A stretch of 49,556 nucleotides of DNA from Flavobacteriaceae bacterium (GTDB lineage Bacteria > Bacteroidota > Bacteroidia > Flavobacteriales_C > GCA-002722245). Within the stretch, counting starts at the first letter, position 1; each line of letters opens with the position of its first letter. The translations under genes were made by a program, and so were the position numbers. Location: positions 1-49,556 of the forward strand of contig CAXRIN010000032.1 in assembly GCA_964230605.1 (NCBI GenBank). The letters run 5' to 3'. A model generated the notes under the pieces. It saw only the letters and a program-made list of their open reading frames with translations. It was not told the DNA's origin and searched no databases. Shown here piece by piece: positions 8,271-33,018 of the stretch.

Positions 8271-9344
8271 ATGTTAGATAAATTAGCGGAAATAAATGTA
8301 AGGTTTGAAGAGGTTGGAGAAAAACTGACTATGCCAGATGTTGTGGCGGATCAGAAGAAATTCGCTGAATTAAGTAAGCAATTTAAAGATCTTGAACCTA
8401 TAGTTAAAGTATACAAAGAGTACAAAAATGTTCTTGATAATATAGAGTCATCAAAGGAAATTTTGGAGATTGAAGATGATCCGGAAATGAAAGAGATGGC
8501 CAAAATGGAGATTGAGGAATTGTCGTCCAAGAAAGATGAAATGGATGAAGAAATTAAGATACTTCTTATTCCTAAAGATCCTGCAGATGACAAGAACTGT
8601 ATTATTGAATTAAGAGCTGGTACAGGAGGAGATGAGGCTTGTATTTTTGTTGAAGACATGTATAGAATGTATACAATGTACTTTAAAACAATGGGCTGGA
8701 AGTCGGAAATTATCAATTCTACAGAAGGTACTGTTAAAGGATATAAAGAAATTTCAATGGAAGTTTCAGGAGAAGGTGTATATGGTACCATGAAATATGA
8801 GTCTGGTGTTCACCGTGTTCAAAGGGTTCCTGAAACTGAATCTCAAGGAAGAGTTCATACTTCCGCTATTACAATTGCTGTTATGCCTGAGGCGGAAGAG
8901 ATAGATTTTGAATTGAATTTGAAAGATGTTCGTAAAGATACTTTTAGAGCATCAGGGGCTGGAGGTCAGCACGTAAATAAAACTGAATCGGCAATTCGTT
9001 TAACGCATATTCCAACTAATACAGTTGTTGAATGTCAAGATGGAAGGTCGCAGCATCAAAACTATGATAAAGCCCTTCAGGTTTTAAGGTCTCGATTATA
9101 TCAAGCTCTTTTAGATGAACAAAATTCTGAGATTTCTGCAACTAGAAAAGCTCTTGTTGGTTCAGGGGATAGATCGGCAAAAATCAGAACTTACAATTAC
9201 CCTCAAGGAAGAGTTACAGATCATAGAATTAATAAGACAATTTATAATTTGTCTAATTACATGAATGGTGATGTTCAGGATATGTTTGATGCTATGAAAA
9301 TGGCTGAGACAGCTGAGAAAATGAAAGAAGGGGAAAGCTTTTAA
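8271..9344 (+). CDS. prfA: Peptide chain release factor 1
   Basis: PxT motif (RVPETE), GGQ motif, RTYNYPQGRVTDHR. Confidence 0.97.
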   Translation: MLDKLAEINVRFEEVGEKLTMPDVVADQKKFAELSKQFKDLEPIVKVYKEYKNVLDNIESSKEILEIEDDPEMKEMAKMEIEELSSKKDEMDEEIKILLIPKDPADDKNCIIELRAGTGGDEACIFVEDMYRMYTMYFKTMGWKSEIINSTEGTVKGYKEISMEVSGEGVYGTMKYESGVHRVQRVPETESQGRVHTSAITIAVMPEAEEIDFELNLKDVRKDTFRASGAGGQHVNKTESAIRLTHIPTNTVVECQDGRSQHQNYDKALQVLRSRLYQALLDEQNSEISATRKALVGSGDRSAKIRTYNYPQGRVTDHRINKTIYNLSNYMNGDVQDMFDAMKMAETAEKMKEGESF

Positions 9345-9347
9345 AAT

Positions 9348-9425
9348 AGTTTGAAGTTCGAAGTTTGAAGTTCGAAGTAATTCGCGCTCCAACTACGAAC
9401 TGTGAACTGCAAACTACGAACTATG
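9348..9425. repeat. Inverted heptamer tandem-repeat element
   Basis: (AGTTYGA)x4 + AGT, 12-nt spacer, then AACTACG AACTGTG AACTGCA AACTACG AACTATG; the two arms are near-complementary. Confidence 0.9.
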
Positions 9426-10244
9426 AATAAAGAGGAACTATTTGAGCAAATAAAAATCAAAAAATCATTTTTGTGTGTTGGATTGGATTCTGACCCTTTA
9501 AAAATTCCCGCTTTTTTGAATGATTTTGATGATCCTGTTTTTGAATTTAATAAAAGAATCATTGATGCTACCAAAGATTATTGTGTTGCATATAAGCCCA
9601 ATATTGCCTTTTATGAAGCGCAAGGAACTAAAGGATGGGAGTCTTTACAAAAAACTTTAGATTATATTCCTGAGGATATTTTTACAATCTCTGATGCTAA
9701 AAGAGGGGATATTGGAAATACTTCGAGTTTGTATGCCAGAGCATTTTTTGAGTCAATGAATTTTGATTCTGTAACTGTAGCGCCTTACATGGGGAAAGAT
9801 TCTGTTACCCCTTTTTTAGAATATGAGCATAAATGGGTTATACTGTTAGCTTTAACGTCTAATATTGGTGGTTTGGATTTTCAAACAAAGAGATTGCAAA
9901 ATGGAGAATTTTTATTTGAAACTGTTCTCAAAAAGTCTCTTGAGTGGGGTGACGAAAATAATTTGATGTACGTGGTAGGTGCTACAAGAGCAGATTTATT
10001 AACCAAAATTCGCGCAATTGTACCCAATTCATTTTTGTTGATTCCTGGTGTTGGTGCACAAGGTGGAAGTTTGAAAGATGTAGCTGAGTTTGGGCTGAAT
10101 GATACTTGCGGACTATTAGTGAATTCTAGTCGAGGGATTATTTTCGCTTCTCAAGAAAACGATTTTGCAGAAGTTGCAAAATTGGAAGCTCAAAAGATTC
10201 AGTTAGAAATGGAGCAGCTTTTAAAAAGTAAAAAATTGATATAA
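9423..10244 (+). CDS. pyrF: Orotidine-5'-phosphate decarboxylase
   Basis: [39 protein letters not shown]; ATG 9423 preferred. Confidence 0.96.
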
Positions 10245-17920: not shown

Positions 17921-17955
17921 AACTTTGAACTTTGAACTTTGAACTTATAACTTTG
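17921..17955. repeat. Heptamer tandem repeat (AACTTTG)x5
   Basis: AACTTTG AACTTTG AACTTTG AACTTAT AACTTTG. Confidence 0.9.
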
Positions 17956-17968
17956 TTATGTATCTTTG
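17938..17968 (+). promoter_or_regulatory. Bacteroidota sigma-A promoter of rpsU
   Basis: TTTG (17938-41), 19-nt spacer, TATCTTTG (17961-68): the canonical -33/-7 consensus. Confidence 0.75.
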
Positions 17969-17994
17969 TCCTCCGATTTTTAAAAAGATATAAA

Positions 17995-19565: not shown

Positions 19566-19639
19566 GCCGATGTAGCTCAGCTGGCTAGAGCAGCTGATTT
19601 GTAATCAGCAGGTCGTGGGTTCGAGTCCCTCCATCGGCT
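19566..19639 (+). tRNA. tRNA-Thr (TGT)
   Basis: Cloverleaf with acceptor GCCGATG/CATCGGC, anticodon arm GCTGA-TTTGTAA-TCAGC, T-loop TTCGAGT. Confidence 0.96.
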
Positions 19640-19678
19640 CTTAGTTCTTTAAAAGACTTTACATTATTTATCGGTTTT

Positions 19679-19760
19679 GGGGAGATACTCAAGCGGTCAA
19701 CGAGGGCAGACTGTAAATCTGCTGGCTACGCCTTCGTAGGTTCGAATCCTGCTCTCCCCA
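19679..19760 (+). tRNA. tRNA-Tyr (GTA)
   Basis: Acceptor GGGGAGA/TCTCCCC, anticodon arm GCAGA-CTGTAAA-TCTGC, long variable arm. Confidence 0.96.
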
Positions 19761-19812
19761 CTATTGCCTTTACCGGTATCAAGTGTTTTACACTTGGGTA
19801 AAAAGAAATTAG

Positions 19813-19886
19813 GCGGGAATAGCTCAGTTGGCTAGAGCGTCAGCCTTCCAAGCTGAGGGTCGTGGGTTCGAGTCCCATTTCCCGCT
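19813..19886 (+). tRNA. tRNA-Gly (TCC)
   Basis: Acceptor GCGGGAA/TTCCCGC, anticodon arm TCAGC-CTTCCAA-GCTGA. Confidence 0.96.
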
Positions 19887-19913
19887 CTTTTTTTCTTTTT
19901 AACATTGGTTTAA

Positions 19914-19985
19914 GCCGATGTAGCTCAGGGGTAGAGCGTTTCCTTGGTAAGGAAGAGGTCACGGGTTCAAATCCCGTCATTGGCT
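19914..19985 (+). tRNA. tRNA-Thr (GGT)
   Basis: Acceptor GCCGATG/CATTGGC, anticodon loop TTGGTAA, T-loop TTCAAAT. Confidence 0.95.
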
Positions 19986-21296: not shown

Positions 21297-21369
21297 ACGG
21301 GAGTAGCTCAGTTGGTAGAGCACTGGTCTCCAAAACCAGCGGTCGGGAGTTCGAGCCTCTCCTCCCGTG
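21297..21369 (+). tRNA. tRNA-Trp (CCA)
   Basis: Acceptor ACGGGAG/CTCCCGT, anticodon arm CTGGT-CTCCAAA-ACCAG; tuf-trpT-secE context. Confidence 0.96.
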
Positions 21370-32922: not shown

Positions 32923-32946
32923 AAAGCCCCTTTTAAGGGGCTTTTT
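32923..32946 (+). terminator. Intrinsic terminator of the rpoBC operon
   Basis: AAAGCCCCTT-TT-AAGGGGCTTT followed by TT. Confidence 0.85.
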
Positions 32947-33018
32947 CGTTTAAAGTATAAAGTAGAGAGTTTACCACTAGTTGAACTTTAAATTTTAGAC
33001 GATAAACTTTAAACTTAT
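32947..33018. repeat. Degenerate inverted heptamer-repeat element
   Basis: CGTTTAA AGTATAA AGTAGAG AGTTTAC, 9-nt spacer, AACTTTA AATTTTA GACGATA AACTTTA AACTTAT. Confidence 0.65.

Follow-up and report, generated by a model that had tools for sequence, protein, structure and literature searches.

The hairpin of heptamer repeats that fills the prfA-pyrF spacer of a Flavobacteriaceae genome is probably a MITE-like, non-autonomous copy from a family of hairpin elements particular to that genome; the full-length member of the family is a cassette carrying a four-helix-bundle (4HB) gene between sufB and sufC. The window, i.e. the whole stretch of 49,556 nucleotides that was analysed, is contig C32 of genome G000 (2.55 Mb in 121 contigs, 34% G+C, estimated 81% complete). 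prfA and pyrF are separated there by a spacer of 78 nt, and the element takes up all but its first three bases. The parts of the element and its two neighbours are, in window positions:

8271..9344, + strand: prfA, peptide chain release factor 1 (TIGR00019, E 3.4e-151), stop TAA at 9342-9344
9345-9347: spacer bases AAT between the prfA stop and the element
9348..9378, unstranded: 5' arm AGTTTGA AGTTCGA AGTTTGA AGTTCGA AGT, beginning 3 nt past the prfA stop
9379..9390, unstranded: loop or core AATTCGCGCTCC, 12 nt, G+C 7/12 against 34% for the genome
9391..9425, unstranded: 3' arm AACTACG AACTGTG AACTGCA AACTACG AACTATG, its final three bases being the pyrF ATG
9423..10244, + strand: pyrF, orotidine-5'-phosphate decarboxylase (TIGR02127, E 6e-69), start ATG at 9423

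Direct reading and TRF bear out the array structure given in the original prediction; the element at 9348-9425, filling the prfA-pyrF gap, reads (AGTTYGA)x4 plus AGT, a 12-nt GC-rich loop and (AACTNNN)x5. The left arm has period 7 with 4.4 copies and also period 14 with 2.2 copies at 100% match; the right arm has period 7 with 5.3 copies at 76% match. The pattern AACTNNNAACTNNNAACTNNNAACT occurs five times in the window against 0.00 expected (100 shuffles), three times inside the element and twice at 17921-17952. The hairpin that had been proposed was likewise recovered, with a fold z of about -4 on both strands: 9342-9428 folds at -24.1 kcal/mol as RNA of the + strand (z -4.0, 0/200 shuffles as good) and at -23.7 kcal/mol on the - strand (z -3.9), i.e. 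with no strand bias, and hand alignment yields a stem of ~33 positions with 5 non-pairs and 3 G-U pairs (+ strand). The further proposal that the element supplies the start codon of pyrF had to be given up. ATG 9423 aligns with the pyrF ATG of element-free relatives (M-T/N-K/R-E...), and because of this alignment the start codon is judged to be ancestral and older than the element, the last heptamer merely overlapping it. The upstream start at GTG 9402 of the mechanical ORF list was rejected, relatives aligning from residue 1 at ATG 9423.

Known RNA families and common signals gave little at this site. Rfam at gathering score returned five tRNAs only across the whole window, with no rRNA and nothing on the element, and a search of 9200-9600 at E<=10 gave a best E-value of 2.6 and nothing relevant. 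Between 8900 and 9800 there are no terminator-like sites (GC-rich stem plus U tract) and no sigma-70 promoter sites by a scan model that does not cover Bacteroidota promoters. The tRNA genes (RF00005) comprise four clustered at 19566-19985 and a fifth 1.3 kb on, at 21297-21369.

The element belongs to a family of non-coding repeat elements, as had been predicted. A regex scan of G000 found 26 arrays of at least three exact AACTNNN or AGTTNNN units, the inverted pairs among which include C32:9348-9425 (the present element), C81:21752-21812, C81:23131-23284, C81:24058-24542 and C94:7895-8035. Three successive AGTTYGR units match 11 times in G000, at five loci (C32, three in C81, and C94); elsewhere there is one match, in one of 20 other genomes of the family, and the reversed control gave 0. 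Between the arms of C81:24058-24542 lie 420 nt with a gene for a TIGR02436 "four helix bundle protein" (E 7.9e-36; PF05635, 125 bits). This 4HB cassette with the AGTTYGA/AACTNNN unit lies between sufB and sufC, while gene-less hairpins of the same unit are also found at sufC|sufD, sufD|sufS and bioB|bioF (C94). The order in C81 is sufB, 4HB cassette, sufC, gene-less element, sufD, gene-less element and sufS-sufE-SUF-associated, after which come a gene-less AATTTTG/ATTCAAA pair and the next gene. Some arms touch codons: AACTATG runs into the start at both C32 and C94 (bioF), and TAGTT lies over the sufD stop at C81:21808-21810. In the extracted suf operon locus (L047, G000:C81:17000-26800) the four heptamer-armed elements occupy successive gene junctions, at L047 2661-2757, 4753-4813, 6132-6285 and 7059-7543, one with the 4HB gene and three gene-less, one gene-less copy having a different unit.

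The tie of 7-mer arrays to four-helix-bundle genes, put forward in the original prediction, extends to every such gene of the genome: all three PF05635/TIGR02436 genes of G000 stand between inverted period-7 arrays, with three different units, one of them AGTTYGA/AACTNNN and the other two GAAGGTG x14 plus ACCTTCT x7 (C68) and AATTTTG plus ATTCAAA (C5). The idea that the prfA-pyrF element is the empty site of a mobile cassette gives way to that of a gene-less copy. Its origin by internal deletion from a longer copy was considered and set aside; the loop resembles the sufC|sufD core (ATTCGCGCTCC and ATTCGCTCTCC, 10/11 positions identical), a link too weak to show descent. The second 4HB cassette, C68:33326-33961 (L049, G000:C68:31000-36000), is preceded by a perfect 14-copy GAAGGTG array and followed by ACCTTCT in 7 copies, and long solo GAAGGTG arrays are seen at C20:5857, C27:5562 and C30:19812.

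Comparison with relatives, in 24 of whose loci prfA and pyrF are adjacent, found the gap of the congeners empty, as predicted. The spacer measures 78 nt in G000 versus 9-10 nt, repeat-free, in all five congener loci holding both genes, and in a sixth congener, G002, the two genes stand on contig ends sharing 7 nt of overlap, which implies a gap of 10 nt; six of six congeners lack the element, a seventh, with a genome 66% complete, giving no pyrF match. The suf junctions behave similarly. sufB|sufC is 498 nt in G000 versus 17-30 nt in 6/6 congeners, and sufC|sufD is 170 nt versus 9-21 nt in 5/6, the sixth having ~75 nt with another hairpin. This presence and absence, taken with the multi-copy distribution, suggests that the element family is mobile. 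By eye, a T precedes AGTT and an A follows AACT in four of five copies, the spacers of relatives being too diverged to define the pre-insertion site, and no clear target-site duplication was seen in the five copies beyond this T...A beside the arms.

A parallel case is found in a sister genus, g3, where four of nine genomes have their prfA|pyrF gap filled by AATGTTY, which is also the unit of the sufB|sufC cassette (by eye); therefore in two genera this gap holds a gene-less element built from the unit of the genome's own cassette. The prfA|pyrF gaps of further genera (L028, L033, L027, L012, L013, L021 and L022) hold different period-7 arrays, again by eye, e.g. in L028 four AACCTTG units that run up to the ATG, and in L033 a 245-nt gap with two sets of AACTGGG AACTCAT AACTGCC AACTGCT.

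The element is also the most variable stretch between near-identical strains. Metagenome DNA contigs from two runs of different studies (marine and salt marsh) carry 9204-9344 with 0-1 differences and 9435-10100 with 3, and in the same two runs the 90 nt 9345-9434 are replaced by 76 other letters. The difference of 14 equals two units, and a guess from length alone (90-76=14) would make this allele two heptamers shorter. A scan of metagenome contigs for the 76-letter allele with the last 20 nt of prfA gave one unrelated chance match (L034). In the RNA contigs of X17 and X18, 9358-9404 is outside the coverage.

The cassette in C81 represents a wide family: out of 401 genomes sampled from the class, 226 contain a match to its 4HB protein at E<=1e-10, one of the 226 being an unpublished genome (G113). 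The best 29 loci (L062-L090, 44-57% identity to the C81 4HB protein) were compared. In 24 of them, on one flank or both, the lag-7 run reaches at least 8 and exceeds the runs at lags 5, 6, 8, 9 and 10; no such run was found at L064, L072, L079, L083 and L085. All 32 cassettes (the 29 loci and the three of G000) have complementary arms, of 18-89 positions, and this complementarity is kept while the units differ (AGTTCAA, AGTTCTT, AGTTCGA, AAGGTTC, GGGTTTT and others). The 1025 arm positions comprise 894 Watson-Crick pairs, 35 G-U, 37 A-C and 59 other combinations. With G-U at 35 and A-C at 37 over the 32 cassettes, the 4HB sense strand shows no wobble bias, and thus no pointer to a specifically RNA-level constraint. 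G exceeds C in the 5' arm of 30 of the 32, with two ties and none reversed (kin are not independent), and since an inverted repeat reads alike on both strands this G-rich-first polarity is intrinsic to the element; 29/32 are co-directional with both neighbours. Of the 29 closest 4HB homologues, 19 occupy the same sufB|sufC junction, and they come from several families of the class. By this distribution sufB|sufC is a conserved or repeatedly targeted 4HB cassette site, and because so many homologues share it the cassette there would be either old and lost in the congeners, or homing to that junction. A review of diversity-generating retroelements (PMC10053308) reportedly mentions PF05635.

Repeat units were followed across five genomes, in which 18-mers taken from the arms of five cassettes were searched with up to one mismatch. 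The patterns were taken from these genomes' own cassettes, so that the diagonal cells count the cassette's own arms, the rest being other loci:

AGTTYGA 18-mer matches: G000 20, G017 0, G405 17, G284 0, G161 0
AATGTTY 18-mer matches: G000 2, G017 196, G405 0, G284 0, G161 0
AACTAAG 18-mer matches: G000 0, G017 0, G405 19, G284 0, G161 0
AACCTTG 18-mer matches: G000 0, G017 7, G405 0, G284 15, G161 0
AATCTCA 18-mer matches: G000 0, G017 0, G405 0, G284 0, G161 48

To judge from these matches, the units are specific to genomes and go with the cassette resident there. G161 has very long perfect arrays of AATCTCA, ~16 units at C2:1405759-1405874 and ~30 at 1803105-1803318, and the sufB|sufC 4HB cassette of that genome has the AATCTCA unit too.

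Two further arrays in the window had been named as relatives of the element, at 17921 and 32947. Period 7 and the AACT core are indeed common to them; the unit of the prfA|pyrF element is not. They are:

17921..17955, unstranded: solo AACTTTG x5 array, with no partner arm, preceded by a terminator-like hairpin and followed by a promoter-like TATCTTTG
32942..33016, unstranded: AAAGT-type and AACTTTA-type units forming a weak inverted pair, whose end is 4 nt from a following ATG

The first, of the AACTTTG/AGTTCAA unit family, forms no hairpin (fold z +0.8), and the second a weak one (-14.6 kcal/mol, z -2.2, 6/200 shuffles as good). Solo AACTTTG/AACTTCG arrays at 17921-17975 of the window and at L035 1500-1545 (G002) are followed within ~10-25 nt by TATCTTTG, which presumably fits the TAnnTTTG -7 box of Bacteroidota promoters; in the window it sits upstream of a candidate ORF whose translation resembles ribosomal protein S21. 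Such arrays may double as sources of -33 TTG motifs.

Over the whole of G000, TRF gives 183 non-overlapping arrays with at least three copies, of which 78 have period 7, against 25 with period 6, 17 with period 8 and 23 with period 9. The period-7 unit families are ATAGTCC/ATGGTCT, GAAGGTG/ACCTTCT, AATTTTG/ATTCAAA, AACTTTG/AGTTCAA, AGTTCGA/AACTNCG and TTCCACA. Collapsed, the period-7 arrays form 71 rows, 19 hairpin pairs (arms at most 260 nt apart) and 52 solo arrays, with 57 of the 71 outside long ORFs; the ORF calling behind these placement counts is crude. The 19 pairs lie between co-directional ORFs (13), convergent ORFs (3) and divergent ORFs (1), at a contig end (1) and inside an ORF (1). 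A restriction of hairpin pairs to operons was rejected, with only 13/19 between co-directional ORFs, a share that would be near what any intergenic feature gives. Array pairs 0.6-1.9 kb apart (C9, C68:11029/12253, C83) were also rejected as passenger cassettes: they enclose host genes that resemble nadD, trpB and gatA, judged from translations. In C68 (L093 285-366 and 1553-1630) two inverted ~75-nt copies bracket a trpB-like gene (again judged from translation), each made of a unique 45-nt part and an AATTTTG/ATTCAAA array, the arrays pointing toward that gene.

A reading of the arrays as products of local replication slippage, with no mobility and no real tie to 4HB genes, is quite unlikely. 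Slippage would account for a left arm that is a perfect 14-mer duplication, for a strain allele differing in length by 14 letters and for the 52/71 period-7 rows of G000 that are solo arrays, and both heptamer over-representation and its explanation by slippage are in print (PMC4692102 and PMC4679880). It leaves unexplained the two complementary arms, the unit held in common with the arms of a 4HB gene and the genome-specific 18-mer matrix; the AGTTYGR unit is at five loci of G000 yet in none of 19/20 family genomes, and ~68 nt would have to come from a 10-nt spacer. Unlikely too is a role of the arrays as binding sites, on DNA or mRNA, for a multimeric protein, possibly a pentameric 4HB protein or a host regulator, that would tune the downstream gene, here pyrF. 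The genes flanked are unrelated (prfA/pyrF, suf, bio, trp, gat) and the congeners manage without the element, against which stand the construction of the units (a conserved 4-nt core and three variable positions), arrays that end at or a few nt from start codons, the five chains per entry of both solved relatives (2gsc, 2rld), and the intrinsic polarity (G > C in the 5' arm of 30/32 cassettes, 2 ties). The paper on TAACTGA repeats makes the same proposal for heptamers that stop 1 nt short of a start codon (PMC4679880).

A dedicated cis-regulatory RNA of pyrF, e.g. a pyrimidine-responsive attenuator or a translation-blocking hairpin, is very improbable and was already disfavoured. Such a role would fit a stable stem that takes in the first two bases of the pyrF AUG, but the structure is missing in all six congeners, the same type of element occurs at suf and bio junctions, there is no Rfam match at gathering score (local best E 2.6) and no terminator-like U tract, and the antisense fold is equally good. 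The element is not an ordinary regulatory structure.

The reading as a gene-less copy of the 4HB cassette, in which the insert would have come from the resident cassette lineage and then changed by 7-nt slippage, also offers an account of how it is borne between two housekeeping genes. Pairing of the arms would begin 3 nt downstream of the prfA stop and extend into the A and U of the pyrF AUG, and with the insert extruded as a stem-loop the two codons would be as near to each other as they are across the ancestral spacer of 10 nt. It is probably by holding stop and start together in this way that the element is tolerated. A ribosome that terminates on prfA would open the lower part of the stem and expose the AUG of pyrF. 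The duplex of ~33 positions could also be an RNase III substrate, like rRNA intervening sequences, and such processing is plausible because an rnc gene is present in G000 (208 bits) and the Coxiella intervening sequence is cut in vitro. Counting against the gene-less-copy reading are the want of a clear target-site duplication or other direct sign of movement, the fact that 4HB proteins are not known transposases, the polarity of gain versus loss (19/29 homologues at sufB|sufC), the period-7 arrays of other lineages in the prfA|pyrF gap, the equal folding on both strands, the near-equal G-U and A-C counts (35 vs 37), and pairs that are not confined to operons.

A broader proposal is tentative and open to real doubt: 4HB cassettes and gene-less hairpins may form one widespread mobile class without a canonical transposase, in which the 4HB protein would recognise, spread or homogenise its own heptamer arms in trans. 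The solved relatives 2gsc and 2rld are uncharacterised proteins with five chains per entry each. If true, this 4HB specificity would explain why the solo and hairpin arrays of a genome match the unit of the resident cassette, why the G-rich-first polarity is fixed, and why heptamers are the most over-represented long simple repeats of bacteria. Two loose ends would then join, the intergenic heptamer excess in bacteria and the function of the very large 4HB/IVS-protein family, and the gene-less element may help account for the abundance of 7-base repeats in bacteria. The prfA|pyrF copy is a compact case, a ~68-nt hairpin wedged between the stop and start of two housekeeping genes, which can show whether such inserts are extruded neutrally, cut by RNase III or bound by the 4HB protein. 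For annotation, heptamer arrays mark insertions, break assemblies and create false upstream starts, e.g. GTG 9402.

MITEs, and REP/BIME with their RAYT, are small, non-coding, multi-copy intergenic sequences with inverted ends that are present or absent between relatives. The element resembles a MITE in being 78 nt, non-coding, with inverted ends and a unit at five loci, and in its presence or absence at orthologous sites (short spacers at prfA|pyrF in 6/6, sufB|sufC in 6/6 and sufC|sufD in 5/6 congeners). It departs from a MITE in its full-length partner, whose one product is a 4HB protein and no known transposase, and from both MITEs and REP/BIME in its arms, which are tandem arrays built on a unit that differs between genomes. 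A REP/BIME system with RAYT was rejected for G000, where the Y1_Tnp (RAYT-like) gene at C38:24138-24758 is flanked by palindromes and not by heptamer arrays; no arrays immediately border a second Y1_Tnp match, C16:751-1446. At C38:23981-24890 REP-like palindromes, unrelated to the heptamer arrays, lie on both sides of the former gene. The terms MITE, REP/BIME and RAYT are introduced in PMC4692102.

Published intergenic heptamer repeats resemble the element in build. Two papers describe them: TAACTGA, which stops 1 nt ahead of start codons and is known from marine Beggiatoaceae, Bacteroidetes and Cyanobacteria (PMC4679880), and GGGAATC in Xanthomonas (70-75 convergent, or inverted, pairs) and GGGGAYT in Nostoc, with a heptamer excess known since 2007 (PMC4692102). 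Like simple heptamer repeats of the STRR-like kind, the prfA|pyrF element consists of tandem, intergenic 7-nt units. In the published repeats the 7-nt unit is present in anything from a few copies to tens, arrays mix related variants of it, and the placement is almost always intergenic and often a few nt from a start codon or ORF end; their indels between strains come in 7-nt steps. The units differ from those of the present case, and the papers discuss G-quadruplexes or regulator binding, not hairpin insertions. The terms "four helix" and "23S" have 0 occurrences each in the available text of PMC4679880 and PMC4692102, neither of which there ties the repeats to a cassette gene. In a full-text literature search of main texts, only the paper on the Coxiella intervening sequence (PMC4990558) was found to join heptamers with a PF05635-type ORF.

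The ORF-bearing intervening sequences (IVS) of 23S rRNA offer that comparison. The helix-45 IVS of Coxiella burnetii encodes S23p in a 4HB ORF; its stem measures 28 bp, its heptamers vary between strains, and RNase III cleaves it in vitro (PMC4990558). A selfish, mobile origin of IVS has been proposed since the 1990s, as cited there. Both systems have inverted termini that form a long stem (28 bp in Coxiella, ~33 positions in the prfA|pyrF element), the Coxiella IVS has direct heptamers in its 5' stem region whose number varies between strains (PMC4990558), and in both the loop of the full-length form carries a gene of the PF05635/TIGR02436 family. They differ in that the element lies between the protein-coding genes prfA and pyrF and not in a 23S helix (25 or 45), that the prfA|pyrF copy has a 12-nt loop and no ORF, its sister C81:24058-24542 having one, that both arms are wholly heptamer arrays with gene-less copies across G000, and that RNase III cleavage is demonstrated for the IVS and only predicted for the element. 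Were the broader proposal true, the rRNA intervening sequences would be the special case of such an element that landed in an rRNA helix.
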